From assembly GCA_964418585.1 (NCBI GenBank), contig CAYQMG010000072.1, positions 19,121 to 83,120 of the forward strand: 64,000 nt of DNA, given 5' to 3'. The translations under genes and the position numbers were made by a program. How positions within the stretch are numbered: the first letter of the stretch is position 1; the number at the start of each line of letters is the position of its first letter. The notes under the pieces were generated by a model, which worked only from the letters and a program-made list of their open reading frames with translations, ran no database searches and was not told the DNA's origin. The DNA comes from an uncultured Gammaproteobacteria bacterium (GTDB lineage: Bacteria > Myxococcota_A > UBA796 > JAJRTE01). Below, piece by piece: positions 1,913-22,837 of this stretch.

Positions 1913-3106
1913 TCAGATCACACGGTCTGATTTCAGGCGGGCGATGTCGTCCTGGGAGTAGCCCAGGTCGGCGAGGATCTCGGCCGTGTGTGCTGACAGC
2001 CTGGGCGGGGGCGACTCGAGCTTGCCTGGGGTGCGCGAGAACTTGGCGGTCAGGTTGAAGAGTTTCAGCTTTCCGAGATCGGCCTCCTCCACTTCCCCGA
2101 TTGTCTGCCGGTGCTGAACCTGGGGGGAGGAGAGCGCCTCCTCCAGGCTGTAGATCGCCCCGGAAGGCACGCCTCGCGCGTTCAGTACTCGAACCCAGTG
2201 CTCGGTAGGCTTTTGCTTGAGCCGCGCCTCGAGCAGTGGTGTCAAGGCCTTGCGGTTTGCCTTCCGTGTGTCTCGCTCCTTGAACCGTGGGTCCTCGACG
2301 AGTTCGGGCACGCCCAATTCCTCGGCCAGGGCTTCCCACTGTTCCTGCTTGTTGGCCGCAATGTTGATGTATCCGTCCTGGGTCACGAAGGTGCCCGAGG
2401 GGGCTGCGGTGAAGTTGTCATTGCCCATCAGCACCGGTTGCTTTCCCCCGATGAGCAGATTTGCAGCGACCCATCCCATGAGGGGCATGATGGAGTCGAG
2501 CAGGGCCACATCGATGAACTGGCCCTCTCCGGTTCGTTCCCGGGCGTAGAGCGCAGCCATGATGGCGAAGGCGGCGTTCAATCCCCCCACGGTGTCACAG
2601 ACCGGGAACCCGCAGCGGAGCGGATTGAGGCGTTCGTCCCCGTTGATGGACATGACGCCGCTCAGTCCCTGGATGATCTGGTCATAGGCTGGCTTGAAGG
2701 CGTCCGGCCCGCTCTGGCCGAACCCGGAGATGGCACAGTAGACCAGACGGGGGTTGATACTGGAAAGCCGCTTGTAACCGACACCGAGACGGTCCATGAC
2801 TCCGGGCCGGAAGTTCTCCACCACCACGTCGGCTGTGGCGACGAGCTTTTCGAAGATTTCCTTTCCCTCGGGCGCCTTCAAGTTGATCGTGATCGACTTC
2901 TTGTTCGCGTTCTGGGCCAGGAAACTTGTACCCATGAGCTGCTTGTTCAGTTCCGGCACGTTCCCCAGTTTCCTGGCCAGATCCCCACCCGACGGATTCT
3001 CGACCTTGATGACCTCGGCGCCACACAACGCGAGATGAAGCGTGGCAAAGGGGCCCGAGAGGACGTTGGTGAGGTCCAGGACTCGAATGCCTTCCAGGAT
3101 GTCCAC
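1913..3106 (-). CDS. Family III CoA-transferase (CaiB/BaiF-like)
   Basis: 397-aa ORF, (M)DILEGIRVLDLTNVLSGPFAT...VENPSGGD...: the typical CaiB/BaiF fold signature. The start codon is GTG, preceded by a [14 protein letters not shown]. Confidence 0.8.
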   Translation of the reverse strand: MDILEGIRVLDLTNVLSGPFATLHLALCGAEVIKVENPSGGDLARKLGNVPELNKQLMGTSFLAQNANKKSITINLKAPEGKEIFEKLVATADVVVENFRPGVMDRLGVGYKRLSSINPRLVYCAISGFGQSGPDAFKPAYDQIIQGLSGVMSINGDERLNPLRCGFPVCDTVGGLNAAFAIMAALYARERTGEGQFIDVALLDSIMPLMGWVAANLLIGGKQPVLMGNDNFTAAPSGTFVTQDGYINIAANKQEQWEALAEELGVPELVEDPRFKERDTRKANRKALTPLLEARLKQKPTEHWVRVLNARGVPSGAIYSLEEALSSPQVQHRQTIGEVEEADLGKLKLFNLTAKFSRTPGKLESPPPRLSAHTAEILADLGYSQDDIARLKSDRVI

Positions 3107-3136: not shown

Positions 3137-4054
3137 TCACGCGCCGGTAGGAATGGGGCCGGTCCGATAGATTCGCCCCGGCAGGTCCCGTCCCAGCAAC
3201 TTGCTCGCCTCCCGCGTGGTCTCCAGGATGGGATCCAGCGCCACATCCCGCCGGATTCCCATTCGGTGCATCATGTGCACGAGGTCCTCGGTGCACACGT
3301 TTCCACCCGCCACCTTGGTGAACGGACAGCCGCCCAGCCCTCCGAACGCAGCTTCCACGCACCGAACGCCGGCGCGAAGGGCGGCATAGGCATTCGCCAT
3401 CCCCAGGCCATAGGTATCGTGCAAGTGGCAGGCCGTCTCAATCCCGGATCCAAGGTCCCGGATCTTGCCAAACAGCCGCTCCACCTGGTCCGGGTCCGCA
3501 TGGCCGGCCGTGTCGGCCAGGCTGATCGTGGTAAAACCGGCATCGAGAAAGGTCCGAACCAGATCCAGCACCCGCGACTCGGGAATCGGACCCTCGTACC
3601 CACAACCGAACGCGGACTGCACCGACATCTGGACGCGCTTGCCTTCTTCCAGAACCCGCCGCCCCATGGCCACAATCCGCCGGGTCGCTTCCTCCGTGCT
3701 CATCCCCGTGTTCTTGCGACTGTGCGTGTCACTCGCAGAAACGCCCATGCAAAAGTAGTCCACTCCGCATGCAAGGCCCCGGTCCACTCCGCGCTCGTTG
3801 AGCACCAACGCGGTCCACGTCACCTTGCTGGAAAACGCTTCGTTCTCCCGAAGTCTCAGGAAAAGCTCATCCGTATCCGCCATCTGCGGCACACGCCTGG
3901 GATGAACGAACGAACCAACCTGGATCATGTCCACGCCAGACCTTGCGAGCCGGGTGATCCACTCGAGCTTCTGCTCAGTCGGTACCACCATCTCCTCGAC
4001 CTGAAGCCCATCCCTGGGGCCGACCTCGTGAATGATCACATCACCAGTCACCAT
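3137..4054 (-). CDS. Hydroxymethylglutaryl-CoA lyase family (DRE-TIM metallolyase) protein
   Basis: MVTGDVIIHEVGPRDGLQ...HLHDTYGLGMANAYAALRAG...: the HMGL-like signature. ATG with AGAGGTG RBS. Sits 30 nt upstream of the CoA-transferase gene on the same strand. Confidence 0.8.
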   Translation of the reverse strand: MVTGDVIIHEVGPRDGLQVEEMVVPTEQKLEWITRLARSGVDMIQVGSFVHPRRVPQMADTDELFLRLRENEAFSSKVTWTALVLNERGVDRGLACGVDYFCMGVSASDTHSRKNTGMSTEEATRRIVAMGRRVLEEGKRVQMSVQSAFGCGYEGPIPESRVLDLVRTFLDAGFTTISLADTAGHADPDQVERLFGKIRDLGSGIETACHLHDTYGLGMANAYAALRAGVRCVEAAFGGLGGCPFTKVAGGNVCTEDLVHMMHRMGIRRDVALDPILETTREASKLLGRDLPGRIYRTGPIPTGA

Positions 4055-4098: not shown

Positions 4099-5217
4099 CT
4101 ACAGCAACGCAGCGATGGCTTCAGCCATCTCCAGCGTCGTGTTGCTCCCGCCCATGTCGTAGGTCCGGACCTCGCCCCGCTCGATACACCCGGCAACGGC
4201 ATTCTCCAGCCGCTCCGCCATGGACGTCTCTCCCAGCCAGTCAAGCATCATCTTGACAGCCAAAATCGTGGCGATGGGGTTGACCTTGTACTGCCCCGCA
4301 TACTTCGGGGCAGACCCGTGCGTGGGCTCGAACACGGCGAGCTTCTCCCCGATGTTCCCGGAACAACCGAACCCGAGTCCTCCGACCATCTGTGCGCACA
4401 GGTCGGACACCACGTCCCCGTACAGGTTCGGGGCGACCAGCACGTCGTACTTGTCAGGATTCTTCAGCAGCCACATGGTCATCGCATCCACGTTGGCCTC
4501 GTCGAACACGATCTCCGGGAAGTCCTTCGCCACCTCCTTGGCAGTCTCGAGAAACAGGCCGTCCGTGGCCCGAACCACGTTCGCCTTGTGAACCACCGTC
4601 ACCTTCTTCCGACCATGCTTCCGCGCGTACTCGAATGCAGCACGGACAATCCGCTCCGAACCGGCACGGGTATTGATCTTGCACGACACGGCATACGCAT
4701 CGCCATCCAGGTCCGCGTACTTTCCGAACGGTCCGGAAATCGACTGGAGAAGGGAGGACAGTTCCTCGGGCACCGGGTGGAACTCCACGCCGGAATAGAG
4801 GTCTTCCGTATTCTCCCTGAAGACCACAATGTCCACGTCCGGACGATAGTTGAGAGGATTGCCGGGGAACGCCCTGCAGGGTCGCAGACACACATACAGG
4901 TCAAACAACTGACGCATTCGCACGATGGGCGACCGATAAACCAACCCGGTCCCCTTCAGATCGGGAGCCAGTTCCTGCTCCGCCGCCTTCACCGGCTTCG
5001 ACGTGATGGCGCCAAACACGGCGGCATCCACGTTCTGAAGCAGCTCAATGGTCCTCGCAGGAAGCGCATCCCCTTCGCGGCACCAGAACTCCCAGCCGAT
5101 GTCCCCGTGAATGTACTCGGCGTCCAGGTCCAATCGATCCAGCACGATCTTCGCGGCGTCGCACACGTCGACACCCACACCGTCCCCAGGCAACCACGCA
5201 ATTCGATACTTGGCCAT
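4099..5217 (-). CDS. Isocitrate/isopropylmalate dehydrogenase family (beta-decarboxylating dehydrogenase)
   Basis: The ORF extends to 5346, but MAKYRIAWLPGDGVG... at 5217 is the typical family N-terminus. NLYGDVVSDLCAQMVGGLG active-site region. About 372 aa. Confidence 0.75.
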   Translation of the reverse strand: MAKYRIAWLPGDGVGVDVCDAAKIVLDRLDLDAEYIHGDIGWEFWCREGDALPARTIELLQNVDAAVFGAITSKPVKAAEQELAPDLKGTGLVYRSPIVRMRQLFDLYVCLRPCRAFPGNPLNYRPDVDIVVFRENTEDLYSGVEFHPVPEELSSLLQSISGPFGKYADLDGDAYAVSCKINTRAGSERIVRAAFEYARKHGRKKVTVVHKANVVRATDGLFLETAKEVAKDFPEIVFDEANVDAMTMWLLKNPDKYDVLVAPNLYGDVVSDLCAQMVGGLGFGCSGNIGEKLAVFEPTHGSAPKYAGQYKVNPIATILAVKMMLDWLGETSMAERLENAVAGCIERGEVRTYDMGGSNTTLEMAEAIAALL

Positions 5218-5421: not shown

Positions 5422-6906
5422 CTAGAGGAAGTCAGAGACTCGAGACGCCACCTCGATCAGGGGGTTCCAGTAGATACCGAGTCCCACGGTCAACAGCGCA
5501 AGGAAGGCAAGAACACCGGTGCGGGCACCTGATACGTGAATTTCCGGGATACCGTCCACCGGCTCGGTCAGGTACATGGCACGAAGCACACGGGCATAGT
5601 AGTAGAGGGACACCACCGAGTTCAGCACACCGATGATCGCGAGAATGACGTACCAACTCCCCTCTCGCTGCAACACCGCAGCAAACAGGTAAAACTTGGT
5701 AACGAACCCGCCAAAAGGCGGAATCCCGGTCAACGAGAGCAAGAAAACGGCGAAACAGGCGGACACCACCGGCAGCCGCCGCGCGAGTCCGGAAAATACC
5801 GAAATCTCCTCGCTGTCCGTGTACTCCGCCACCGCAAGTACCACAAAAAAGGCGCCCATGTTCATGATGAGGTAGACGACCAGGTAGGCCATCACCGCAG
5901 CCACGCCGTCCCTGGACAACGCAACCACCCCCATCAACATGTAACCGGCATGGGCAATGCTCGAGTAGGCCAGCAGCCGTTTCAAGTTGGTCTGCGTGAT
6001 CGCCGCCAGGTTTCCAAACGTCATGGACGCCACCGAGATCACCCCAAGCACCGCCTGCCACGGCACCATGTCGATGGCATCAAACGTCCCAGGCCCTGCG
6101 GCCTCCCCGAACGCCGTGAAAAACAACCGGACCAGCGCAGCAAATCCTGCAGCCTTCGGCGCCACTGACATCATCGCAGCAAAGGGTGTTGGAGCTCCTT
6201 CGTAAGCGTCCGGACACCAGGCGTGAAACGGAACCGCAGCTATCTTGTAGGACAGGCCCGCAAGAATGAAAAGAACCGAAATGAACCCCAACGCCGTCGT
6301 TGCCGCGCCCCCTCCACCGGCCCCCAACGCCCCTGCCACGCCTTCGTACGACAGCTCTCCGGTCATCCCGTACAAAAGCGACAGGCCGAACAGCATGATG
6401 CCTGAGGCCACCGCGCCGAAAATCGCGTACTTCAACCCCGCTTCCACCGACCGGGGCCGGTGCGGGTCGAACGCGGTCAGTCCATACGCGGTGATGCTGA
6501 TGAGTTCGAGGGACAGGTAGAGCACGAGTAGATTCGTCGCCGACACCACGGCGATAAGCCCAACGGTCATCACCAACAACAGGGCGACGTACTCAGCATG
6601 CCGGCCCCGCACCACCTCCCGCACGCCATCAGAGAACAGGATGGTGAGCAGTGTTGCAGCCGCAAACAGGGGAATCAAGAACACCGTCAAGGCATCCGCC
6701 GCCAACATGTCCCGGAAACTGTTCTCGTAGGCGTACTGTCGAAGCGGCAGCACCAGCAGCGCGGCCAGAACCACCCCTGCGCCGCCCAAAACTGTGTACA
6801 ACCGGACGCGCCGTTCCCTGGAGGCCAGGTCCAGGATCAGGATGGCCGCAGCGGAGAGCAGAAGCACCAGCATGGGCGCCAGTTGATAGAAATCACTCGG
6901 GGTCAC
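5422..6906 (-). CDS. nuoN: NADH-quinone oxidoreductase subunit N
   Basis: 494-aa polytopic antiporter-like protein with NuoN/ND2-like sequence. It is the last gene of the contiguous nuo block. Confidence 0.85.
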   Translation of the reverse strand: MTPSDFYQLAPMLVLLLSAAAILILDLASRERRVRLYTVLGGAGVVLAALLVLPLRQYAYENSFRDMLAADALTVFLIPLFAAATLLTILFSDGVREVVRGRHAEYVALLLVMTVGLIAVVSATNLLVLYLSLELISITAYGLTAFDPHRPRSVEAGLKYAIFGAVASGIMLFGLSLLYGMTGELSYEGVAGALGAGGGGAATTALGFISVLFILAGLSYKIAAVPFHAWCPDAYEGAPTPFAAMMSVAPKAAGFAALVRLFFTAFGEAAGPGTFDAIDMVPWQAVLGVISVASMTFGNLAAITQTNLKRLLAYSSIAHAGYMLMGVVALSRDGVAAVMAYLVVYLIMNMGAFFVVLAVAEYTDSEEISVFSGLARRLPVVSACFAVFLLSLTGIPPFGGFVTKFYLFAAVLQREGSWYVILAIIGVLNSVVSLYYYARVLRAMYLTEPVDGIPEIHVSGARTGVLAFLALLTVGLGIYWNPLIEVASRVSDFL

Positions 6907-6915
6907 CGCATCCTC

Positions 6916-8454
6916 CTAGATTGCCACCGCCTCGGTCACGGACTTGATGAGGCTGAACAGCCCTGGATTGATGAGGTCGAGGACTGGCATGGGATAGAAG
7001 CCCATCACCACGATGATCACGCCCAGCGGGTACAAGGTCGCCCGCTCACGCCACGTCACCCCGGCCAGATCCGCATACTTGGGATTCAGGTTGCCCAGGA
7101 AGATTCGTTGCATCGTCCACAGGTAGTAGGCCGCGGTGATGACCACCGACGTTGCGGAGATGATCGTGAGTACCCGGAACGTGGGGAACGCCCCCAGGAA
7201 ACAGAGCGCCTCGCTGATGAATCCGGCCAGCCCGGGCAACCCCAGGGACGCCATGAACGCCAACCCGGTCAACGCTGCATACTCGGGCATCACGTGCGCC
7301 AGGCCCCCAAAACCATCGATCCGACGGTGATGGGCGCGGTCGTAGATCACGCCAACGAGAAGGAACAGCATCGGGGAAATGATCCCGTGATTCCACATCT
7401 GCAGCACCGCGCCTGATATCCCCTGCTCGGTAAACGCGGCCATCCCCAGAAGCACAAATCCCATGTGGCTGATCGACGAGTAAGCAATCAACTTCTTGTA
7501 GTCACGTTGCGCCATACATACCAGCGCGCCGTAGACAATGTTGATCATTCCGAACACCGCCATGCCCAACGCCGCCCATTGCGTCGCCTCCGGCAGGATC
7601 GTGTAGTTCACCCGCAGAATACCGTAGGTCCCCATCTTCAAAAGCACACCCGCCAGAATCACCGAGATCGGGGTGGGCGCCTCCACGTGCGCATCCGGGA
7701 GCCATGTGTGGAACGGGAACATCGGAATCTTGATCGCAAAGCCGATGAACAACGCCACGAAGATGATCTTCGGAAAGGCCACACCGAGAATCGGACCCGC
7801 CTGCGAGAAATCATTCTCCGACGCCAACTTCAGGAAATTGAACGTGTGCGAACTCGCCGTACCGTCCACCAACGTCGTGGGGTTGCTGTTGTAGTACAAC
7901 GCGATCATCGCCAGCAGCATGAGCACACTCCCTGCCAACGTGTAGAGGAAGAACTTGATCGCGGCATACTCCTTTCGCGGACCACCCCACACGCCGATCA
8001 GGAAGTACATGGGCAACAACATGACTTCCCAGAATACGTAAAACAGGAAGAAGTCCAGCGCGCAGAACACCCCCAACATGCCCGTCTCCAAAAGCAGGAA
8101 CATGGACAGGTATCCCCGCACTTTCTTCTCGATCCCGTAGGACGCAATCAGCGCAATGAACGAGATGAGCACCGTCAGCAGGACCATCGCGATGCTGATG
8201 CCGTCCACGCCCACGAAATACTCAATGTTGAACGTCCGGATCCAGACGACGTGGTCGACAAACTGCACCTCCGATTGCGTCGGATCAAACTGCCGCCAGA
8301 GCACAAACCCCAGCAACAGCGGGACCGCAGTCGCAATCGTGGCAAATACCCGCATCAGATCCCGCCGGTCCGCTGGTGTGAACAACACCGCAGGAATCCC
8401 CAACAACGGGAAGAAGATCATGATCGTCAACAGATGGTCCAGAATGAATTCCAT
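6916..8454 (-). CDS. nuoM: NADH-quinone oxidoreductase subunit M
   Basis: 512-aa antiporter-like subunit (MEFILDHLLTIMIFFPLLG...), NuoM/ND4-like. Confidence 0.85.
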   Translation of the reverse strand: MEFILDHLLTIMIFFPLLGIPAVLFTPADRRDLMRVFATIATAVPLLLGFVLWRQFDPTQSEVQFVDHVVWIRTFNIEYFVGVDGISIAMVLLTVLISFIALIASYGIEKKVRGYLSMFLLLETGMLGVFCALDFFLFYVFWEVMLLPMYFLIGVWGGPRKEYAAIKFFLYTLAGSVLMLLAMIALYYNSNPTTLVDGTASSHTFNFLKLASENDFSQAGPILGVAFPKIIFVALFIGFAIKIPMFPFHTWLPDAHVEAPTPISVILAGVLLKMGTYGILRVNYTILPEATQWAALGMAVFGMINIVYGALVCMAQRDYKKLIAYSSISHMGFVLLGMAAFTEQGISGAVLQMWNHGIISPMLFLLVGVIYDRAHHRRIDGFGGLAHVMPEYAALTGLAFMASLGLPGLAGFISEALCFLGAFPTFRVLTIISATSVVITAAYYLWTMQRIFLGNLNPKYADLAGVTWRERATLYPLGVIIVVMGFYPMPVLDLINPGLFSLIKSVTEAVAI

Positions 8455-8550
8455 CGCTCTCGTACCTTTCCCCGCCTGACTTTCGGCGCCCTCACCTCGT
8501 ACCCGATGGCAGGGCAGGAAACCCGTGCCGGGCCTGCTTCCTCACTCGCT

Positions 8551-10662
8551 CTACGCCAATCCACCCAGAAGCTTCGTGAGGAAAATCACCAGCAGTACAC
8601 CGGCCACCATGATATAGAGATAGTCCTGAAGTCTTCCAGTCTGTACCTTTTTCAAGTACCGCCCAGCCCCTATGAGGCTGTTTCCAACAATGTTCACCGC
8701 CCCATCGACCACATACTTGTCGATTGCGCCGTCGAAGTTGGAGAAGGCGGTGGTCACCCAACCGGCAAGGTTCACGAGGCCATCCACGATGTGCGTATCG
8801 ATCCAGCTCATCGCCCGGGTCAAGGCCAGGAACGGCCGGACGGCCACGGCGTGGTAGAACTCGTCCACGAAGTATTTGTGGAACGACCAGTGGTAAAGCC
8901 CCTGGATGCGGGCCACGATGGTCTTGGCCTTCTCGAGGGAGCCATCGCCGTAGATCCACCGTGCGGCGAGCCATCCGGCAAAGGCCATGGCCACGGACAG
9001 GCCCATCAACCCCCACTCGGCGCCGGCCCCGGCCTCTCTCGAGTGGATATATTGTGCGCTGTGCTCGAACACGGGCTCCAACCAGTGCTCGAGCAGATTG
9101 GGCACATGGAACAGGTGCGGCATGCCAATCCAGCCCCCCACCGTGGCCAGGAAGGCCAGGACGACCAAGGCGAAGGTCATGGTTGGTGGGGATTCGTGGA
9201 TGTGGTGCTGCGTCTCCTCGTCTGCACGACAAGTTCCAAAGAAGGTGATGTAGACCAGCCTGAACATGTAGAACGCCGTGCCCAGGGCAGCGACGGCGCC
9301 GAGGCCCCAGACGAAGAACGGCCACCACGGAATCACCGGGTTTGCGGTATCAAAGGCTTTCCACAGGATTTCATCTTTTGAGAAGAATCCTGCGAAAGGA
9401 GGAAATCCGGAGATGGCGATGGTGGCAATCAAGAAGGTCCAGAAGGTGATGGGGATCTTTTTTCGCAGCCCGCCCATCTTGAAGATGTCCTGTTCGCCGC
9501 TCATGGCGTGAATGACGGACCCGGACCCCAGGAACAGGCATGCCTTGAAGAAGGCGTGGGTCATCAGGTGAAAGATGCCCGCGGTAAAGGCGCCCACGCC
9601 GACCCCGATGAACATGAACCCGAGCTGGGATACGGTGGAATAGGCGAGGACTTTCTTGATGTCACGCTGGGAGAAACCGATGGTCGCGGCGAACAGTGCG
9701 GTGAGTGCGCCGACGCCCGCCACCACGCTCATGGCCGCCGGGGACATGACGAAGAGATAGTTGAGCCTTGCGATCATGTAGCCGCCCGCCGTGACCATGG
9801 TGGCGGCATGAATCAGCGCGGAAACCGGGGTTGGACCGGCCATGGCGTCGGGCAACCAGACATAGAGGGGGATCTGGGCGCTCTTTCCGGTTGCGCCCAC
9901 GAAAAGAAAGACACAGACGAGCGTGGCGAGGCTGATCCCGAGCACCTCCTTCCCTGCCAGCGCCTGGACGGTGTGCGCCATGGTGGCGAAGTCGAGGGAC
10001 AGGGGTTCACCCGAAAGCGCGTAGCCCGAGCTGGACCACCCGCCGGCCATGCCCCAGAGGAGGAACATGAGGCCTGCAAGGAACCCGAAGTCGCCGATGC
10101 GGTTGACCACAAAGGCCTTCATTCCGGCCTTGGCCTTTTCCACGTCTCCAAACCAGAATCCGATAAGCAGGTAGGAGCAGAGTCCCACGCCTTCCCATCC
10201 CACGAACATGAGCAGGAGGTTCGAGGACAGGACGAGGACGAGCATGGCGAAGGAGAACAGGTTGAGGTAGGCGAAGTAGCGCCACACACTCTTGTCGTGG
10301 GCGATGTAGCCAATGGAGTAGATGTGAATCAACCCGCCGACCCCGGTCACCACCAGCGCCATCAGTGCGGAGAGTGGGTCCATGGTGAAGCTGACCGAGA
10401 GTTCCAGGTTGCCGACCGCTATCCACGTGTAGAGATCGTTGACGAGCACTCGGTGTTCCGGGGACTGGCCCAGAAGCATGATGAACCCGGACACGGCGGT
10501 GATGAACGAAGCCCAGATGGCCACGTTGGCGATGATTCCGTTCAGCCACTTGCCCACACGTTCCTGCAACAGCCACCCGACCGTGCCGTTGATGAAGGCT
10601 CCAATCAAGGGGAAGAGCGGAATGAGCCACAGGAAACCAACGTTGATATGCGTCCCTTCCAT
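8551..10662 (-). CDS. nuoL: NADH-quinone oxidoreductase subunit L
   Basis: 703-aa subunit, MEGTHINVGFLWLIPLFPLIGAF..., with the long C-terminal extension typical of NuoL/ND5. Confidence 0.85.
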   Translation of the reverse strand: MEGTHINVGFLWLIPLFPLIGAFINGTVGWLLQERVGKWLNGIIANVAIWASFITAVSGFIMLLGQSPEHRVLVNDLYTWIAVGNLELSVSFTMDPLSALMALVVTGVGGLIHIYSIGYIAHDKSVWRYFAYLNLFSFAMLVLVLSSNLLLMFVGWEGVGLCSYLLIGFWFGDVEKAKAGMKAFVVNRIGDFGFLAGLMFLLWGMAGGWSSSGYALSGEPLSLDFATMAHTVQALAGKEVLGISLATLVCVFLFVGATGKSAQIPLYVWLPDAMAGPTPVSALIHAATMVTAGGYMIARLNYLFVMSPAAMSVVAGVGALTALFAATIGFSQRDIKKVLAYSTVSQLGFMFIGVGVGAFTAGIFHLMTHAFFKACLFLGSGSVIHAMSGEQDIFKMGGLRKKIPITFWTFLIATIAISGFPPFAGFFSKDEILWKAFDTANPVIPWWPFFVWGLGAVAALGTAFYMFRLVYITFFGTCRADEETQHHIHESPPTMTFALVVLAFLATVGGWIGMPHLFHVPNLLEHWLEPVFEHSAQYIHSREAGAGAEWGLMGLSVAMAFAGWLAARWIYGDGSLEKAKTIVARIQGLYHWSFHKYFVDEFYHAVAVRPFLALTRAMSWIDTHIVDGLVNLAGWVTTAFSNFDGAIDKYVVDGAVNIVGNSLIGAGRYLKKVQTGRLQDYLYIMVAGVLLVIFLTKLLGGLA

Positions 10663-10665
10663 CCC

Positions 10666-10983
10666 CTATTCCCTAAGCTGGTTGAGGTTGTCGACTTCCA
10701 CGGTGCCCATCCGACGGAAAATGGCCAGAATGATGGCCAGCGCAATGGCAGCCTCGGCGGCGGCGAGCACAATGATCATTACGGCGAACACGTGGCCGGC
10801 CACCTCCGGCTCGGCAACGGACGGTCCCACGAAATTGGAGAACGCCACGAAATTGAGGTTGGCCGCGTTCAAAATCAACTCCACGCCCATCAGTATCGAC
10901 ACGGCGTTCTTGCGCGTCAGCACACAGTAGAGCCCGAGGCTGAACAGAACCGCCGCGACGGTCAAGACGGATTGCACAGTCAT
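10666..10983 (-). CDS. nuoK: NADH-quinone oxidoreductase subunit K
   Basis: MTVQSVLTVAAVLFSLGLYCVLTRKNAVSILMGVELILNAANLNFVAF... (105 aa, ND4L-like). It lies inside the longer listed ORF 10666..11493, and its start overlaps the nuoJ stop by 4 nt. Confidence 0.8.
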   Translation of the reverse strand: MTVQSVLTVAAVLFSLGLYCVLTRKNAVSILMGVELILNAANLNFVAFSNFVGPSVAEPEVAGHVFAVMIIVLAAAEAAIALAIILAIFRRMGTVEVDNLNQLRE

Positions 10984-11516
10984 GCCCGCTCCTCCTGCGC
11001 CGGTCCGGCGGTCCCCGCGGTCTTCGGGTGCGTCCGGTGCCTCGCGATGGTTACCGCCCCCACCAGCACCGCAAGCAACAGGATCGCGGCCACCAGAAAC
11101 GCCGGCAGGTAGGTGCTCAACAAATTCTCTCCAATCAGCGGCGTGATACTCTCGTGCTCGAGGTGCGTGTCTGATGGAATCCCCTCCCAGATCCCAAAGA
11201 GCAACATCCCAAGCGTCGCTGCACTGATCACTGCCGCCGCTGCCGGGTTCATGGACTGGTTGCTGATGTTCACGTCGCGAATGCGATGGGTCAGCATCAC
11301 AGCAAAAAGCACCAACACCATCACGCCGCCCACGTAGACCATCATCTGCACGACAGCCAGGAAATCTGCACCCATCATGCCAAACAGCCCCGCAACACCG
11401 ATGAGCGCACCCAGCAACGCAAAGGCGGAACGGACGATGTTGTGCGAAAACGCAGTCACACCGGCCGCCGCAATCGTGAAGGCGGCAACACAAAAAAAGA
11501 TCACTGAGTTCAGCAT
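10980..11516 (-). CDS. nuoJ: NADH-quinone oxidoreductase subunit J
   Basis: 178-aa ND6-like membrane subunit (MLNSVIFFCVAAFTIAAAGV...). Confidence 0.8.
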   Translation of the reverse strand: MLNSVIFFCVAAFTIAAAGVTAFSHNIVRSAFALLGALIGVAGLFGMMGADFLAVVQMMVYVGGVMVLVLFAVMLTHRIRDVNISNQSMNPAAAAVISAATLGMLLFGIWEGIPSDTHLEHESITPLIGENLLSTYLPAFLVAAILLLAVLVGAVTIARHRTHPKTAGTAGPAQEERA

Positions 11517-11577
11517 GAGACCTGTTTCACTCGTTTCGTCCCGGGCCCCTCGCCGGTTCCCGGACAGGTTCGCTCAT

Positions 11578-12213
11578 CTATCCCTTCCCTTCCTTTTCCC
11601 GCGGGGCGCTCGAGCCCTTCCCACCCGCGCCGCCGGCCTCCCCCTCCGTCGGGACCTCGATCTCCCCCGGTGTCCACTGCACATACTCCGCATCCCAGGG
11701 CTTGAGAAGCTGCTCCACAATCGACCCGGACGGTGGCATCTCCGGTACCGGCGTCCCCTTCTTGTGCTTGTAGGGCACCACCGGCTTGTCCACGAAATGC
11801 AACACCAGGTTCCGAATATCCCGTGCACTGGCCTCGAACACCGGTGTGTGGTGCAAACACCCCGTCGGACACGCCTCCGTACACAGACCGCAGTACATGC
11901 ACTTCGAAATGTCGATGTCGAACCGGGTCAGCAACCGCCCCTTCCCACTCGGGTGCTTCTTGGTCTCCACCAGGATCACGTCGATGGGACAGGCCCGCGC
12001 ACAGGCGCTGCACGCGGTGCACGCCGGGATGTGCACCTCCAGGATGCCCCTGAACCGCCCGGGCAGCATGCTCTTGACCGGCTCGGGCGTCCGATCCGGA
12101 TACTGGATGGTGATCGGTCGCCGAAACATCCAGGAAAGCGTCACGGCCATCCCTTCGAAAATCGTCACGGCGGCGTTCTTGATGTTTTCGACGTATGACG
12201 CAACACTGCCCAT
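11578..12213 (-). CDS. nuoI: NADH-quinone oxidoreductase subunit I (2x[4Fe-4S] ferredoxin-like)
   Basis: Two CxxCxxCxxxCP motifs (CTACSACARACP, CMYCGLCTEACP). Gly/Glu-rich C-terminal tail. Confidence 0.85.
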   Translation of the reverse strand: MGSVASYVENIKNAAVTIFEGMAVTLSWMFRRPITIQYPDRTPEPVKSMLPGRFRGILEVHIPACTACSACARACPIDVILVETKKHPSGKGRLLTRFDIDISKCMYCGLCTEACPTGCLHHTPVFEASARDIRNLVLHFVDKPVVPYKHKKGTPVPEMPPSGSIVEQLLKPWDAEYVQWTPGEIEVPTEGEAGGAGGKGSSAPREKEGKG

Positions 12214-12214
12214 G

Positions 12215-13423
12215 TCAAATCAACCACTTGTAGACGGGTGTATCCTTGCCGGACCTGATGTTGTACCACGCCCGCCAGAACATGCCGGCCACCAGCGCGG
12301 CCCCGGCCAGCGTAAGCAGGACACTCACGGCCCCGGTGACCCAGGTTGGCACGGCTGCTGCAACCAGTTGCCAGACCAGGGAGAAGACGACCAGACCGAT
12401 TCCGATCGGCACGAAATACTTCCAGCACATCATCATCAACTGGTCCACCCGGAGGCGAGGCAATGTCCAGCGCAGCCAGATGGTGACGGAAACCAGGATG
12501 GATGCCTTGGCGATGAAGATGGCAGCCCCGAGCAACTGGAGCCAGAGGTTGTTGGTCTGAGTGGCGAGGTCCACCCCCGGGATCCGCCAGCCGCCCAGGA
12601 ACACAGCGGTGATGACGGCGCCGATGACATAGAGGTTCCCCCACTCCGCGAAGGCGAAGAAAAGGAACCGCATTCCGGAATACTCGGTATTGTACCCGGA
12701 GACCAACTCGCTCTCGGCTTCGGGCAGGTCGAACGGAGTCCGATTGCCCTCGGCCAGGGAGGCCACGAAGTAGACGAAGAACGCCACGAAGGTTGCCGGG
12801 GAGAAGAAGACGAGCCACTGCCACGGCCATCCTCCCTGGTGCTCGATGATTCCCTGGAGCGACAGGCTTCCCCCGGGGATGATGGCGGTAAGCAGGGCCA
12901 TGCCCGCTGCGACTTCGTAGCTGACCATCTGTGCAGCGGAACGGATCCCACCGAGCAGTGCCCACTTCGAGTTGCTGGCCCAACCGCTCATGATGATGCC
13001 TGTGACCACCAGCGCGGTGACCGCCAGCAAGTAGACGATCCCCACGTCGAGGTCCGCGCCCACGATCCACGGTCCGAAAGGAAGCACCACAAAGGTGAGG
13101 AAGACTCCGGCGAACACCGGGTAGACGGCGAGACGGAAGAGGATCCTGTCCGCGTCGTTCGGAATCAGATCCTCCTTCAGGAAGTTCTTCATGCCGTCCG
13201 CAAGCCACTGGAGGAAGCCCTGCGGTCCCACCCGGTTGGGTCCGATCCGGCACTGCATGCGGCCGGCGACCCGGCGCTCGATCCAGGTGACGGGCCCTGC
13301 GAACGCGGCGAAGAACCCGATCATCAGGATACCGTACCCGATGACCAGAATCGCGAAGGCCAGTTCGGGATGGGCGCTGGCAAAGCTCCATTCCGACTTC
13401 AAGTACTCGAAAAAGTCGCCCAT
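12215..13423 (-). CDS. nuoH: NADH-quinone oxidoreductase subunit H
   Basis: 402-aa ND1-like protein. Its start codon shares a nucleotide with the nuoD stop (13423). Confidence 0.85.
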   Translation of the reverse strand: MGDFFEYLKSEWSFASAHPELAFAILVIGYGILMIGFFAAFAGPVTWIERRVAGRMQCRIGPNRVGPQGFLQWLADGMKNFLKEDLIPNDADRILFRLAVYPVFAGVFLTFVVLPFGPWIVGADLDVGIVYLLAVTALVVTGIIMSGWASNSKWALLGGIRSAAQMVSYEVAAGMALLTAIIPGGSLSLQGIIEHQGGWPWQWLVFFSPATFVAFFVYFVASLAEGNRTPFDLPEAESELVSGYNTEYSGMRFLFFAFAEWGNLYVIGAVITAVFLGGWRIPGVDLATQTNNLWLQLLGAAIFIAKASILVSVTIWLRWTLPRLRVDQLMMMCWKYFVPIGIGLVVFSLVWQLVAAAVPTWVTGAVSVLLTLAGAALVAGMFWRAWYNIRSGKDTPVYKWLI

Positions 13424-14568
13424 TATCTGTCAATCTCCGGTGCAATCACGTCGAGACTCGCAATCAGGACGACGAGGTCGGCAATCATCAACCCCTTCGA
13501 CGCATGCTCGATGATCGACGTGGCCGTGAAGGATCCTGCCCGAATCTTCACCCGGTAGGGCTTGTCTTTCCCGTCCGAGATCACGTGGTATCCCAGCTCA
13601 CCTCGAGCGCTCTCGACCGCGGCATAGGCCTCCCCCTTGGGGGGCTTGAGCTTCCTCGGCACCTTGGCCATGATGTCCCCTTCAGGGATTCCCGCCAGGG
13701 CCTGACGGAGTATCTTGACACTCTCCATCATCTCCTCGACCCGGACCACGAACCGGTCGTAGGCGTCCCCAAGCGTACCGCGGACCCCCCGCCCCACACA
13801 CACTTTGAAGTCGAACTCGGGATAAGCCGAGTAAGGAAGGTCCCGCCGGAGGTCCCAGTCGACCCCGCTTCCCCGCAAGTTCGGTCCGACCAGCCCGTAG
13901 GACTTGGCTGTCTCGGCATCGATGATGGCCACGTTGGCACACCGCTTGACCAAAATCTCGTTGACCGTGATCAAGCGGTTGAATTCTTCCATCAATGGCT
14001 CAAACGTGTCGAGGAAGGAAAGGATCTTCCTGTCCAGCCCCGCGGGAATGTCGAAAGCCACCCCGCCCACCCGGACGTAGTTGTAGGTCAGGCGGGCTCC
14101 GCACAACTCCTCGATGATGTCGTTGAGCTTTTCCCGTTCCCGGATGCCGTGCAGGAACGGAGTGAACGCCCCGATGTCCATCGCCATGGCGCCCACCCCG
14201 ATGAGGTGGCTCGCGATCCGGTTCAACTCCGACACGATCACCCGCAAGTACTCGGCCCGTCGCGGCACCTCCAGCCCCAACAACCGCTCCACGGCCAGGG
14301 CATACCCGTGGTTGGCAAACATGGCGGCCAGGTAGTCCACCCGGTCGGTGAATGGCACAAACGACGGATAGGGCATGCCCTCCGCAAGCTTCTCTATGCC
14401 ACGGTGCAGGTAACCCACATGGGGCACGGCCCGTTGCATCACCTCACCGTCCCCGGTGATGATGAACCGAATGACCCCGTGCGTACTCGGGTGCTGAGGC
14501 CCCATGTTCAGGATCATGAGGTCGTCGGACACCGACTGCTTGCTCTGTGTGCTGTCCATCACAGTCAA
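13423..14568 (-). CDS. nuoD: NADH-quinone oxidoreductase subunit D (49-kDa subunit)
   Basis: [35 protein letters not shown]...: classic NuoD. Followed directly by nuoH with no nuoE/F/G in between. Confidence 0.9.
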
Positions 14569-15074
14569 TACTTCCCCAGGGCTTTGTCACGCGTCGTCGG
14601 AATCCCGTGATAGTCGGGCTCTTCCTTGTAATCTTTCCGCAACGGATGGCCCACCCAGTCATCCGGCATGAGCAGACGCCGGAGGTCCGAATGTCCTTCG
14701 AAATAGACCCCCAGCAGATCGTAGACCTCCCGCTCGTGCCAGTTCGCGGTGGCCCAGATCCCTTCCACCGTGTGCACAGAAGGCTCGTCCCGGTCCAGCT
14801 TCACCTTGACCGCCATCACTTCCCGGTGGGCATACGACATCATCACGTATGCCAACTGAATGTGATCCTGGAAATCGGTCCCGGTGATGCAGCTCAACTG
14901 CTCGAAAGCAAGCTCCGGAGTATCGTGCAGGTACCGACACACATCCACCACGGCCTCTGGTCGGACGTACACACCCAGCAAAAGACCGGGTCGACCGGCA
15001 TCCCGCTCGTCCGCCCCCTCGACCGCGTCTCCAAACTTCTCCTGGAGCCTGGCAACCGTTTCCTCGAATGTCAT
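14565..15074 (-). CDS. nuoC: NADH-quinone oxidoreductase subunit C (30-kDa subunit)
   Basis: 169 aa, NuoC-like. Separate from nuoD (not fused). 4-nt overlap with the nuoD start. Confidence 0.85.
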
Positions 15075-15075
15075 G

Positions 15076-15651
15076 TCAGGCCCTCTTCACGATTCCGCCT
15101 TTCCCCAACTGGGGACGAGGCTCGGTCCGCGTGGTCATCTTCCGATGCCAGTTCTCGGACATGATGATGTTCTGGATCTTCATCATTGCGTCCGCAAGCG
15201 CTTCCGGCCTCGGTGGACATCCGGGCAGGTACAGGTCGACCGGCACGATGAGGTCCACCCCTTTGAGCACGGAATAGGACTTCTGGAACAGGCCGCCGCA
15301 ACTGGCGCACGATCCCATGGCGATGACGTACTTGGGTTCCGCCATCTGGTCGTACAAAAGCTTCACCCGTTCGGCCATCTTGTACGTGATGGTTCCGGCC
15401 ACGAGCATCAGGTCCGCCTGCCGAGGCGAGGCGCGAAACACCATTCCGAACCGATCCAGGTCCGTCCGCGGTCCACCGGTCTGCATCATCTCGATTCCAC
15501 AGCAGGCCGTGGCAAACAGCAGATACCAGAGAGAGTGCTTGCGGGGGAGGTTCAGCAGGTAGTTCACCTTGCCCCACACCACGCCCCCTTGTCCGGGCGC
15601 ACCCTCGAAGCCTGCTTCGACGACCTGGGGACTGCCTACTTCTTCAACCAC
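15076..15651 (-). CDS. nuoB: NADH-quinone oxidoreductase subunit B (PSST/20-kDa, [4Fe-4S] N2)
   Basis: CCGIEMM...GSCASCGG...CPPRP motifs. Preferred start is a GTG near 15651 preceded by GGAGA, overlapping the nuoA 3' end by about 16 nt. The alternative ATG at 15735 would overlap nuoA by 100 nt. Confidence 0.75.
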
Positions 15652-16031
15652 TCGAGGTCTCCTTTCCCCCAAACATATGCCAGCCCCAACGAGAGAGGGC
15701 TGAGGAAGAACAGAATCGCGCCCACGGCCGCCCACTTGTCCGGGCTCCCGGCATCACCCGGGCCGCCCACATGATTGGAAATCACCGACAGCGGTGGGAA
15801 CAGCACGGCGAGTGCCACATCGAAAACGAGGAAGATAATCGCGATGATGTAGAACCGGGGATTGAAGTTGAACCAGGCTGAAACGAATGGGCGTTCACCA
15901 CATTCGTAGATTGTCCCCTTGTCCTTGTTCGGCACTCGAGGCCGCAAGAAATGGCCTGCCAGCAGCGCCGCGAACACGAAGCCAGCACCGATGGCGAGGA
16001 AAACAAGGACGGTCAGGAATTCTGGGTTCAT
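15636..16031 (-). CDS. nuoA: NADH-quinone oxidoreductase subunit A
   Basis: [32 protein letters not shown]... (ND3-like) from the ATG at 16031 with a GGGAGGGG RBS. The listed ORF extends further upstream, but that extension lacks an RBS. Confidence 0.8.
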
Positions 16032-16170: not shown

Positions 16171-16478
16171 GCAAAAAACCCCACCGAGCAGGAATGTTGC
16201 AGCCACGCGAAGTTACATCGGAAAAGAATCCCGTTTCTCCCCCTGCCACCAGTCAGCGTCCAACAGGACATCTCACTCGCCCCCCCCTCGGTATCCCGGC
16301 AACCGTTGCTATTGCGTTCCGGCCTCCAGAATGGTAGCTTGAACCCGACCATCCCAAACCGGTCCATGATTCTTCCGGCACACTTCGCCGGAGGCGCGTT
16401 GCAAACGAGGCATCGGCAGCCTTTCCAGGCCGCACGGTGTTGCCAGGGATTCAGTTTCTATCTCCAGGAGTATCACTC

Positions 16479-19034
16479 ATGAGTCATATTCACGAAAACG
16501 AAGCCGCGGAACACGCGGCGCCGACCCTGTCGCTCCACGAGCGAAGCCCGTTCCTGACCGAGGCGCAACTGAAAGCGGAACTGTCCAAGTGCGAGTTCTG
16601 CGAAGAAAAACCCTGCCTCGAGGCCTGTCCATGCCACTGCTCGCCCGCAGACTTCATCCACGCAGCCCAGGTCGGCCTTCCTTCCGACATCCGCCGCGCA
16701 GCCGCCGAAATCATGACCCGAAACCCCCTCGGGGGCGTGTGCGGCATGGTTTGCCCGGACCATCACTGCATGGCAGCATGCGTGCACAAGAAACTCGATG
16801 GTGCAGTGGACATTCCCCAGGTGCAGGCCGCCCTGGTCCAGAAAGCCAAGGATCTGGGGGTGATGCCCGAACTGGCTTCGCCAACGCCGTCGGGCAGGCG
16901 CGTGGCAGTGATCGGTGGAGGTCCGGCAGGACTGGCGGCGGCCGGGACTCTGGCCCAACGGGGCCACGAGGTGACCTTGTTTGAGCGGGACGACCGTCTG
17001 GGCGGCATGTGTCTGTGCATCCCCGAATTCCGACTGGAACGTTCCGTTCTGGAGAGCGACATCGACTGGCTGATTTCTCAGACCGGTGTGCGGGTGGAAC
17101 TGGGTACCGAGGTTGGGTCGCCCACCGAACTGCTGTCCGAGGGGTACGACGCGGTGGTGGTGGCCACTGGACTCTGGGAGCCGATCCGACTCGGGATACC
17201 CGGGGAGGAACTGGCCACGGCGGCCACGGATTTCCTCAAGCATCCCGAACAGATCGACGTATCCGGTCGCGTGGCGGTCATCGGTGGCGGCGCCACGGCG
17301 TACGACTGCGCGGTGACAGCGATGGCCCAGGGAGCGGCCCGGGTCGAAATGTTCGCGCTGGAGAACCTCGCCGAAATGCCCCTCACCGAGAAGGAGATGA
17401 AGGGGCTGGTGAGCAGCGGGGTGGACGTGGGGGGGCGTGTCCAGGTCACCGAAATTCTCCAGGCGGGAGGCAAGATAACCGGTCTCCGGACCCGCAAGGT
17501 GAGCCTGCCTCGAGGCAAGACCTTCCATCCCACGCACATGGTCCCGGTCCCGGGCACGGAAACCCGGAGGGATGACTTCGATACAGTCATCATCGCCATT
17601 GGCCTCCGCTCCGGATTCCCTCGGGTGGAAGATCCCCGTGTGGTCTACGCAGGAGATTGCGCCGAAGGTCCGACCACGGTGGTGGAGGCGTCGGCGTCGG
17701 GCAAGAACGCTGCCGACGTGGTCGAGGCGATTTTCCAGGCGTCTCCCAGGCCGAGCTTCCCGAGGAACAAAAGTGGCCATGTCAAGAGCCGGGCACTGGT
17801 TCCGGGCTACGACACCCGACCGGTCGGGCTCGAGGCCGAATTCTTCGGCCGGCCCATCGAGACGCCCTTCCTCCTTTCGGCCGCCCCGCCCACCGACGGC
17901 CTCGAGCAGATGCGCAAGGCCTATGCGGCGGGATGGTCCGGGGGCATCATGAAAACCGCATTCGACGGGATCCCCATCCACATCCCCGAACGGTACATGT
18001 TCACCTTTGACAAGAACACCTACGCGAATTGCGACAACGTGTCCGGTCACCCCCTCGACCGCATGTGCCGGGAAATCGAGCAACTGGTCAAGGAGTTCCC
18101 GGACCGCCTCACCCTCGGCTCCACCGGGGGCCCGGTCACCGGAGACGACGAAGCGGACGCCCGCCAGTGGCAGAGCAACTCCCGCAAGCTGGAAAATGCG
18201 GGGGCCATGGGCATCGAGTTCAGCCTGTCGTGCCCGCAAGGAGGCGACGGGACCGAGGGCGACATCGTGTCTCAAAATGCGGCCCTGACCGCCAAGATCA
18301 TCGACTGGGTCCTTTCCACCGGCGACGGGAACGTGCCCAAGCTGTTCAAGTTGACCGGGGCGGTCACCTCGGTCGCAGCCATCGTGGCGGCCGCTCGAGA
18401 GGTCTTCGAGCGATATCCGGACAAGAAGGCCGGGATCACCCTCGCCAACAGCTTCCCCACCCTGGCGTTCCGCAAGGGGAACAAGCCGACGTGGGAAGAA
18501 GGTATCATCGTGGGGGCCAGCGGCGCCGGCATCCTCAACATCAGCTACCTCTCCCTCGCCAAGGTCGCCCACCTCGGCGTCACCGTGTCCGGAAACGGCG
18601 GCCCCATGGACTACAAGGCCGCGGCCGACTTCCTCGCCCTCGGTGCACGCACAGTCCAGTTCTGCACCATCGTAATGAAATACGGTTACGGCATCATCGA
18701 CCACCTCACCTCTGGCCTCAGCCACCTCATGGCCGACCGGGGCATCTCGAGCGTGCAGGAACTGATCGGGATCGCATTGCCAGACCCCATCACCGATTTC
18801 ATGGACCTCTCACCGGTCAAGAAGGTCTCCCAACCCATCCGCGATCTGTGTCTCCAGTGCGGCAACTGCACCCGCTGCCCCTATCTGGCCATCTCCATGG
18901 ACGCGGATGGATTCCCGGTGACCGACCCGTCCCGGTGCGTCGGATGTGGGATCTGCGCCCTCAAGTGCTTCGCATCGGCCATCGAAATGCGCGAGCGCAC
19001 GCCCGAAGAGGCCGCGGCGCTCAAGGAGTTCTGA
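16479..19034 (+). CDS. Dihydropyrimidine-dehydrogenase-type flavin/Fe-S oxidoreductase, fused GltD/PreT-like plus DHOD/PreA-like (YgfK-like)
   Basis: N-terminal 2x[4Fe-4S] Cys clusters (CEFCEEKPCLEACPC, CGMVCPDHHCMAAC). Two dinucleotide-binding motifs (VAVIGGGPAGLAAA, VAVIGGGATAYDCA). DHOD-like TIM barrel. C-terminal 2x[4Fe-4S] ferredoxin (CLQCGNCTRCP, CVGCGICALKC). ATG at 16479 with CAGGAG RBS; the listed ORF opens on an upstream TTG. ssnA follows 19 nt downstream, as ygfK-ssnA do in E. coli. Confidence 0.75.
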   Translation: MSHIHENEAAEHAAPTLSLHERSPFLTEAQLKAELSKCEFCEEKPCLEACPCHCSPADFIHAAQVGLPSDIRRAAAEIMTRNPLGGVCGMVCPDHHCMAACVHKKLDGAVDIPQVQAALVQKAKDLGVMPELASPTPSGRRVAVIGGGPAGLAAAGTLAQRGHEVTLFERDDRLGGMCLCIPEFRLERSVLESDIDWLISQTGVRVELGTEVGSPTELLSEGYDAVVVATGLWEPIRLGIPGEELATAATDFLKHPEQIDVSGRVAVIGGGATAYDCAVTAMAQGAARVEMFALENLAEMPLTEKEMKGLVSSGVDVGGRVQVTEILQAGGKITGLRTRKVSLPRGKTFHPTHMVPVPGTETRRDDFDTVIIAIGLRSGFPRVEDPRVVYAGDCAEGPTTVVEASASGKNAADVVEAIFQASPRPSFPRNKSGHVKSRALVPGYDTRPVGLEAEFFGRPIETPFLLSAAPPTDGLEQMRKAYAAGWSGGIMKTAFDGIPIHIPERYMFTFDKNTYANCDNVSGHPLDRMCREIEQLVKEFPDRLTLGSTGGPVTGDDEADARQWQSNSRKLENAGAMGIEFSLSCPQGGDGTEGDIVSQNAALTAKIIDWVLSTGDGNVPKLFKLTGAVTSVAAIVAAAREVFERYPDKKAGITLANSFPTLAFRKGNKPTWEEGIIVGASGAGILNISYLSLAKVAHLGVTVSGNGGPMDYKAAADFLALGARTVQFCTIVMKYGYGIIDHLTSGLSHLMADRGISSVQELIGIALPDPITDFMDLSPVKKVSQPIRDLCLQCGNCTRCPYLAISMDADGFPVTDPSRCVGCGICALKCFASAIEMRERTPEEAAALKEF

Positions 19035-19053
19035 CTTTTTCAGGAGGAGTTGC

Positions 19054-20379: not shown

Positions 20380-20401
20380 GAAGCGGAACGGGAGGCCGCG
20401 A

Positions 20402-21607: not shown

Positions 21608-21748
21608 GACGACTCCTGAGACACGCCGGACTCCCAACGTCCGGGGGGACCGTGGTGTTCGACGTGCGGACAAGGCCCTGCCGCCTCGAGACTCCTGCGG
21701 ATCAAGCACGTTGCCACGAGGAGCTGGAGGTCGGCAAAGCGTGTGGGT

Positions 21749-22669: not shown

Positions 22670-22837
22670 GGCGAAAAGCTCTCCTCCGCTATGCCGACGG
22701 TCGGGAACGGCGACGCCCTCCGAGGGTGTCGCGCCCCGCCAGGCGGGAACACGAGTCAGGCGCACCCAAGTATTCTGAAAACGAGCCAACATTCAAGACC
22801 AAAGCGACTCCTCCGGTACCGTGGAGGGGCGCCGGTG

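Follow-up and report, generated by a model that had tools for sequence, protein, structure and literature searches.

An eleven-gene nuo operon lacking nuoEFG in an uncultured Myxococcota bacterium and its relation to the 'third' nuo cluster of Anaeromyxobacter

Organization and class of the operon

The minus strand of a 64 kb stretch of DNA from an uncultured Myxococcota bacterium (hereafter the window) carries eleven consecutive open reading frames (ORFs) at positions 5422-16031, in the order nuoA-B-C-D-H-I-J-K-L-M-N (Table 1). Each of them matches its own Nuo family in NCBIfam or Pfam, with E-values ranging from 5e-21 (NuoA) to 9e-203 (NuoL), which excludes a chance resemblance. For NuoB, C, D, H, K, L, M and N at least one model scores above its curated cut-off, and for NuoA, NuoI and NuoJ none does. 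The GC content at third codon positions (GC3) of the eleven ORFs lies between 0.74 and 0.84, comparable to the remainder of the window, and gives a strong coding signal. Span and gene order are exactly those of the original prediction, which had been made from the sequence and its ORF translations before any database search.

That prediction also held that nuoE, nuoF and nuoG, the genes of the N-module of complex I, are genuinely absent from the operon. The nuoD/nuoH junction reads GAC AGA TAATG GGC: the stop codon TAA of nuoD shares its last A with the start codon ATG of nuoH, as had been proposed, and this overlap leaves no space for nuoEFG. Searched by tblastn (E<=1e-3) with ORFs containing NuoF, taken from three 14-subunit loci, and with the NuoG of Anaeromyxobacter paludicola, neither the operon nor the whole window gave any NuoE-, NuoF- or NuoG-like sequence. 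Both observations bear out the predicted absence. Operon and window alike lack the NuoE, NuoF and NuoG subunits, with their flavin mononucleotide (FMN) and NADH site, that characterize the 14-subunit NADH:quinone oxidoreductase.

Other junctions are mostly tight as well. The nuoA and nuoB genes overlap by 16 nucleotides and nuoJ and nuoK by 4 (ATGA), and short gaps separate B from C and H from I (1 nucleotide each), K from L (3), C from D (5) and M from N (9). Two longer gaps, I/J (61 nucleotides) and L/M (96 nucleotides), involve genes that neither overlap nor abut. The suggestion that all the genes are translationally coupled is thus well founded for most junctions, but slightly overstated because of these two. 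None of the gaps, the largest being 96 nucleotides, has room for a further ORF. The start of nuoB was placed according to the gene calls in loci L001 and L002. Two subunits are extended: NuoH has an additional C-terminal hydrophobic helix, also kept in loci L081 and L079, and NuoL (703 amino acids) is about 90 residues longer than its E. coli counterpart. In relatives NuoL reaches 828-886 residues, with a His-rich insert in A. paludicola.

The ligand patterns of NuoB and NuoI, which the original prediction had singled out for inspection, are complete both in alignments to solved structures and in the sequences themselves. Aligned with bovine PSST, NuoB keeps all four ligands of cluster N2, namely the tandem CC (ACCGIEMM) and the GSC and PGCPP cysteines. 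In NuoI the motif CxxCxxCxxxCP occurs twice in full, as CTACSACARACP and CMYCGLCTEACP, corresponding to two [4Fe-4S] sites. Alignment of NuoD with mitochondrial ND7 shows that its quinone site is conserved in the loop HPSTHG, the tyrosine of DRVDY and the aspartate of MAMDIGA; Nqo4 of Thermus thermophilus also matches (E 3e-97), and the C-terminus, DVIAPEIDR, is as in other complex I enzymes. NuoD has no Ni-Fe cysteine pair.

Charged residues are equally well preserved in the membrane arm. The two membrane glutamates of NuoK (GVELIL, AAAEAAI) can be read directly from its translation, as can the motifs WEGVG, GKSAQ and SKDE in NuoL, WEVML, AIKIP and ISEAL in NuoM, and SLELI, SYKIA and VTKFY in NuoN. 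We take the Glu and Lys residues of these motifs, together with the NuoK glutamates, to be the conserved charged pump residues of complex I. Solved NuoL/NdhF chains can be aligned with NuoL over almost its full length (residues 10-639 of 703 against cyanobacterial NdhF1), and the C-terminal stretch in which the lateral helix and the last membrane helix are expected is present. Its best solved match is NdhF1 itself (6hum_F, 467.8 bits), ahead of NADH dehydrogenase subunit L (8qby_L, 402.7 bits) and T. thermophilus subunit 12 (4he8_L, 392.9 bits). Among solved relatives of NuoI, 7q5y_D (deposited under the name NADH-quinone oxidoreductase subunit I) ranks first and cyanobacterial NdhI second. 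Because the redox ligands and the conserved charged residues are all intact, the encoded enzyme looks intact and functional.

Eleven core genes in one cluster, no nuoEFG in the operon, the ligands of a quinone-reducing Q-module and three antiporter-like subunits, including a NuoL with the lateral-helix stretch, make this operon, on its gene content, a NUO11: an enzyme that resembles complex I, with 11 subunits and without N-module. This assignment is judged on the operon and the window, and the strict definition of NUO11 extends to the absence of N-module genes anywhere in the genome (Degli Esposti 2016, PMC4758237). The Q- and P-modules are homologous to those of the canonical complex I with 14 subunits (T. 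thermophilus, 4HEA; E. coli, 7NYR), and all ligands are conserved; the canonical enzyme has NuoE, NuoF and NuoG, whereas the window operon encodes none of them and hence no FMN or NADH site.

Three other identities were rejected on curated cut-offs and ligand motifs. The NDH-1 of cyanobacteria and plastids (PDB 6hum, 6khj), a ferredoxin:plastoquinone oxidoreductase, shares the eleven homologous core subunits and the lack of NuoEFG. Its small ferredoxin-binding subunits specific to oxygenic phototrophs are NdhS, NdhV and NdhO. NDH-1 needs such extra subunits, which are noted by Degli Esposti (PMC4758237), whereas the window operon encodes none and its gaps are too short for ORFs; moreover, NDH-1 genes are scattered, unlike those of the operon, the NCBIfam scores fall far short of the cut-offs (NdhH 351 against 583, NdhI 95 against 302), and the host belongs to the Myxococcota. 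Scores for the F420H2 dehydrogenase Fpo are likewise below their cut-offs (FpoD 338 against 600, FpoL 449 against 1050, FpoH 249 against 475, FpoI 57 against 180), and Pfam scans of the window ORFs list no F420-dehydrogenase-type domain. A group 4 membrane-bound [NiFe] hydrogenase or Mbx is rejected on NuoD, which lacks the Cys pairs and has HPSTHG at its N-terminal and DVIAPEIDR at its C-terminal side; structures of Mbh, Mbx and formate hydrogenlyase are its weakest matches.

Table 1. Position and family assignment of the nuo genes and of flanking genes in the window (bit scores, with curated cut-offs in brackets)
Gene or product	Position	Strand	Remarks
nuoA	15636-16031	-	131 aa; NCBIfam NuoA NF005839 E 4.8e-21, below curated cut-off; Pfam Oxidored_q4 on identical called gene in L001
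nuoB	15076-15651	-	191 aa, GTG start; carries cluster N2; NF011393 256.7 (255); NF005012 228.6 (116)
nuoC	14565-15074	-	169 aa; TIGR01961 NuoC_fam 129.5 (122.45)
nuoD	13423-14559	-	378 aa, short form; quinone-site subunit; NF004739 452.6 (360)
nuoH	12215-13423	-	402 aa; NF004741 309.8 (305)
nuoI	11578-12213	-	211 aa; best models NF004537 103.1 (163) and TIGR01971 97.1 (113), both below cut-off
nuoJ	10980-11516	-	178 aa; NF005163 E 3.3e-29; Pfam Oxidored_q3 on identical gene in L001
nuoK	10666-10983	-	105 aa; NF004320 94.1 (57)
nuoL	8551-10662	-	703 aa; NF005141 675.5 (556)
nuoM	6916-8454	-	512 aa; TIGR01972 591.6 (263.8)
nuoN	5422-6906	-	494 aa, GTG start; TIGR01770 397.7 (332.6); Pfam Proton_antipo_M
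Isocitrate/isopropylmalate-dehydrogenase family	4099-5217	-	205 nt after nuoN
HMG-CoA-lyase family	3137-4054	-	family match
Family III CoA-transferase	1913-3106	-	family match
GltD/PreT-like flavoprotein and PreA/DHODH-like Fe-S fusion	16437-19034	+	865 aa; Fer4_20, Pyr_redox_2, DHO_dh-like, 2x[4Fe-4S] domains
SsnA aminohydrolase	18946-20379		560 (444)
Ornithine aminotransferase	20402-21709	-	
Ornithine carbamoyltransferase-like	21749-22792	-	
PLP-dependent enzyme	22726-24513		
Knotted carbamoyltransferase YgeW	24553-25746		645 (453)

Relatives and the Anaeromyxobacter cluster

In all six close relatives compared (63-89% NuoD identity: L002, L079, L081, L082, L083 and L084/L085), nuoD abuts or overlaps nuoH, the overlap being 1 nucleotide in L002, L084 and L085 and 4 nucleotides in L079 and L081. 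Across the whole clade of relatives examined, nuoEFG are absent from the operon. The closest genome is a metagenome-assembled genome (MAG), 'Myxococcota bacterium Dive96_bin1.27' (GCA_024278455.1, L002), with a NuoD 89% identical and the same synteny on both sides of the operon. In this sister MAG nuoM is called as two ORFs of 326 and 182 amino acids (L002:12644-14182), in a region 94% identical to the intact 512-residue NuoM of the window; the split is probably a frameshift or an assembly error.

In the more distant A. paludicola (AP025592, L079), the 11-gene operon stands back to back with a second cluster, nuoA-B-C-D-G-H-I (L079:1-8038). Subunits of the 11-gene operon are 67% (NuoD), 71% (NuoB), 54% (NuoH) and 49% (NuoI) identical to those of the window, and those of the second cluster 40% (NuoD), 48% (NuoB) and 37% (NuoH). 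A pair of genes of this kind, a paralogous nuoA-nuoB back to back with the 11-gene operon, also occurs at L082:4685-5612 and L083:7302-8278; the window has no such copy. In A. dehalogenans, Thomas et al. (2008, PMC2330069) described the canonical myxobacterial complex I as split into nuoEFJKLMN and nuoIHGDBA clusters, and reported a 'third' nuo cluster, back to back with nuoIHGDBA, that resembles the one of green sulfur bacteria and was absent from the other myxobacterial genomes sequenced by 2008.

We conclude from sequence comparison that the window operon is an ortholog of this third, green-sulfur-bacteria-like cluster, because the identities exceed those to the canonical paralogs and the gene order is the same. 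Both clusters come from the phylum Myxococcota, share their eleven genes, the order of these genes and the overlap of nuoD with nuoH, and encode an extended NuoH and a NuoI with a C-terminal tail. They differ in tail lengths (in A. paludicola NuoI has 274 amino acids against 211 in the window, and NuoL 828 against 703) and in their surroundings: the Anaeromyxobacter cluster adjoins canonical nuoIHGDBA, whereas the divergent neighbor in the window is a flavin/Fe-S oxidoreductase belonging to a catabolic cluster.

Beyond these relatives, about 55 of 76 more distant loci retrieved by NuoD similarity have nuoD followed directly by nuoH. This adjacency is seen in Alicyclobacillaceae, Ignavibacteria/Kapaibacteria, Planctomycetia, Bdellovibrionales, Melainabacteria and several archaea. 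An insertion of 4.5-6.8 kb with the N-module separates nuoD from nuoH in three loci (L051, L052, L054), and the other loci are truncated or have a hydrogenase-type gene order. In Chlorobi, Ignavibacteria and Kapaibacteria, NUO11 operons (Degli Esposti 2016, PMC4758237; L006-L022) have the arrangement nuoABCDHIJKLMN without N-module, as in the window. They belong to a different phylum, with NuoD 47-48%, NuoB 52-53% and NuoM 50-55% identical to the window proteins, and are more loosely spaced, with gaps of about 130 nucleotides between nuoD and nuoH where the window has an overlap. For the Bacillota loci compared, mostly Alicyclobacillaceae, the identities are low, 44-51% in NuoD and 28-38% in NuoM. 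The higher NuoM identity to Ignavibacteria/Kapaibacteria than to Bacillota is consistent with the 'green-sulfur-bacteria-like' description.

The window operon is therefore an ordinary new example of a known and widely distributed enzyme type, since the architecture without N-module is widespread and already described, and the question of its donor is already recognized. It extends the ortholog group of the third cluster to a different Myxococcota lineage and brings a further uncultured genome of this phylum to the many organisms whose complex I lacks an N-module, and the 'Chlorobi-like' cluster turns out to be more widely spread in Myxococcota-type MAGs than the 2008 report indicated.

Candidate routes of electron entry

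What could feed electrons into this enzyme? NUO11 enzymes are widespread and regarded as ancestral, and no common donor has been identified for them (Moparthi and Hagerhall 2011, PMC3144371; Degli Esposti 2016, PMC4758237). They are viewed as docking platforms independent of the N-module (PMC3144371, PMC11238625), and the same two papers agree with the original prediction, according to which such enzymes take electrons from ferredoxin, F420 or other donors and the donor question is open. In Desulfitobacterium, growth on cytoplasmic donors requires NUO11, through which ferredoxin or a number of other partners have been proposed to feed menaquinone (Willemin et al. 2024, PMC11238625). The operon architecture and the donor question are the same there as in the window; Desulfitobacterium is, however, a strict anaerobe of the Bacillota for which that paper gives inhibitor and proteomic evidence.

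With moderate confidence, we propose that the operon encodes a self-contained carrier:quinone oxidoreductase, ferredoxin or flavodoxin being the most likely donor. A soluble carrier of low potential, most likely ferredoxin or flavodoxin in reduced form, would deliver electrons to an exposed NuoI with its two [4Fe-4S] clusters. From there they would pass to cluster N2 in NuoB and reduce a quinone, probably menaquinone, at the NuoD/NuoB/NuoH site, and quinone reduction would drive proton pumping through NuoH, A, J and K and the antiporter-like NuoL, M and N. NuoI, which would be in contact with NuoG, diverges most among the redox subunits and falls below every curated NuoI cut-off; without NuoG it would be exposed. 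We infer independence from NuoEFG because the N-module enzyme of Anaeromyxobacter, the one related lineage with complete genomes, has its own paralogous Q-module and because nuoEFG are never in the operon anywhere in the clade. The cyanobacterial ferredoxin-dependent enzyme, as the best solved match of NuoL and the second-best of NuoI, may be a weak hint of ferredoxin.

Several points weigh against this proposal. The closest matches of NuoD and NuoB are mitochondrial and Thermus-type subunits rather than cyanobacterial ones, which is why the hint is only a weak one. Pfam scans of the window found no ferredoxin, flavodoxin, pyruvate:ferredoxin oxidoreductase or hydrogenase gene, and our literature search found no donor for any bacterial non-photosynthetic NUO11 enzyme. 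Finally, the part of the genome inspected is limited to the 64 kb window and short stretches past each of its ends, where the source contig shows only Ham1-like, MoaC and TamA/TamB-type genes.

Could this Q-module simply be part of a split conventional complex I, with NuoE, NuoF and NuoG encoded elsewhere and joining it to form an ordinary NADH:quinone oxidoreductase? Myxobacteria do divide their canonical nuo genes into nuoEFJKLMN and nuoIHGDBA (PMC2330069), for Syntrophobacter Spero et al. consider that a single nuoEFG set might serve two cores (PMC4453560), and the rest of the genome lies outside the sequence inspected. A canonical complex I with its nuoEFG is, by analogy with Anaeromyxobacter, probably present elsewhere in this genome. 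By itself this would not refute the NUO11 assignment, because the Anaeromyxobacter ortholog coexists with a separate, complete complex I. Finding nuoEFG elsewhere, which the original prediction offered as its refutation, is thus a weaker test than it was held to be, since in Anaeromyxobacter these genes belong to a separate paralogous enzyme. Subunits A, B, D, G, H and I of that split enzyme are separate copies, only 37-48% identical to those of the window. The adjacency of nuoD and nuoH kept across the clade and many phyla, the divergence of NuoI, the would-be contact of NuoG, and the fact that some relatives join a different Fe-S domain to NuoI also argue against a split conventional enzyme, which we consider unlikely.

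Another alternative keeps the enzyme and reverses its physiological direction: powered by the proton-motive force, it would lift electrons from quinol to a low-potential acceptor, ferredoxin or another, for use in biosynthesis. Such reversal has been proposed for the 11-subunit enzymes found in green sulfur bacteria and other autotrophs. The closest characterized lineage outside Myxococcota is the Chlorobi/Ignavibacteria group (NuoM 50-55%; PMC2330069), and complex I is reversible (PMC8357420). However, the window gives no sign of autotrophy, its neighboring genes being catabolic or housekeeping, and the inhibitor data from Desulfitobacterium favor forward, menaquinol-producing operation (PMC11238625). 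We hold the reverse direction to be improbable here.

Electrons might also arrive without any free ferredoxin, from a dedicated dehydrogenase docking directly on NuoI; the candidates would be the 865-residue flavin/Fe-S oxidoreductase encoded next to the operon, a formate dehydrogenase or a hydrogenase. The domains of the 865-residue protein (Table 1) would suit this role, its gene also adjoins the operon in the 89%-identical sister genome, and several docking partners have been proposed by Moparthi and Hagerhall (PMC3144371). The adjacency is lost below 89% identity, L079, L081, L082, L083 and L084 having unrelated neighbors, and the protein belongs with an SsnA/YgeW-type catabolic cluster; the survey in PMC3144371 is also without a conserved partner. 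A dedicated partner of this kind therefore seems quite unlikely.

That the operon is a decaying or non-functional paralog, as the scores of NuoA, NuoI and NuoJ below their equivalog cut-offs might suggest, is highly improbable given that all ORFs are intact with a strong GC3 signal, that cofactor ligands and expected charged pump residues are all present, and that the operon is kept in several lineages at 63-89% NuoD identity.

The C-terminal tail of NuoI deserves mention. After the two-cluster core, the window NuoI has a segment of about 45 residues conserved in the clade (PYK...P..G.I...L.KWDA.Y), followed by a variable, low-complexity tail that is here cysteine-free and rich in Gly, Lys and Glu. 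Total NuoI length in the clade extends from the 211 residues of the window, through 274 in A. paludicola, to 444 in L081. In L082:10001-10903 and L083:12433-13332, a long low-complexity linker leads to a terminal PF04060 'FeS' domain (37.4 and 31.7 bits, cut-off 23) with the RnfB-type motif CGACTYPTC...C.PGG. PF04060 is also found on database protein P0169 (293 amino acids), and P0236 is listed among the fusion-bearing relatives; in the NuoI of L081:2825-4159 a copy scores below threshold (20.7 bits). This last protein shows a further peculiarity: in its first cluster motif, CIGDLQCQRVCP, the second cysteine is replaced by Asp, and one core cluster may be Asp-ligated or 3Fe.

It is possible that the PF04060 fusion, a feature of relatives and not of the window locus, marks the electron input site of these enzymes. 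No stand-alone RnfB-type Fe-S motif occurs in the window, where the sole regular-expression match lies inside the neighboring oxidoreductase's own ferredoxin domain, and our literature search found no published description of a NuoI-RnfB fusion. The idea could be carried further, with the NuoI tail as the electron-input device of an N-module-less enzyme in a Myxococcota-centered clade: relatives would tether an RnfB-type [4Fe-4S] domain by a flexible linker, and the window tail would recruit a separate carrier. We regard this extension as doubtful; if true, it would expose the long-sought donor interface of the bacterial 11-subunit complex I. The window locus itself gives no special handle on what feeds electrons into NUO11 enzymes and is of little weight as a discovery. 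Only the NuoI-RnfB-type fusion in its relatives is potentially a useful lead: experiments on the input site could take it as their guide.

Flanking genes and the remainder of the window

As the original prediction had noted, a dehydrogenase/HMG-CoA-lyase-like/CoA-transferase trio follows the operon on the same strand, here after a gap of 205 nucleotides. On the other side, a cluster for the catabolism of nitrogen compounds (16437-25746) is transcribed divergently from nuoA, starting with the 865-residue oxidoreductase. Its SsnA/YgeW/YgfK-like combination resembles the ygeW-ssnA purine-catabolism neighborhood of E. coli. Both the oxidoreductase and the trio were rejected as linked partners of the operon, since each adjoins it only in the 89%-identical sister MAG and not in the five more distant relatives. 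None of the neighborhoods compared among the relatives contains a conserved gene that would be a candidate donor.

Rfam and tRNA scans of the whole window gave no matches, and a promoter and terminator scan gave counts not above those of shuffled sequence. A TTGACA hexamer lies upstream of nuoA (16170-16165) and a TTGACG in the gap between nuoN and the isocitrate/isopropylmalate-dehydrogenase-family gene, both of them mere consensus matches. The remaining window is ordinary chromosome, with moaC, recO, mgtE, rodZ, rlmN, recD2, RNase G, ligA, rho, L31, prfA, prmC, ftsY, alr, tdk, tolQRAB-like genes and a BamA/TamA-like gene. Next to moaC, at 615-1706, lies a gene for a radical SAM enzyme of the AmmeMemoRadiSam system (TIGR04337, 643 bits); the AmmeMemo genes that usually accompany it are seen neither in the window nor in about 2 kb upstream (L086). 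Two long ORFs, at 49211-52129 (plus strand, 972 amino acids) and 19021-20448 (minus strand, 475 amino acids), have no family matches, show an atypical GC1>GC3 and run antisense to alr/tdk and to the SsnA gene, respectively; they are not genes but shadow ORFs of a high-GC genome.

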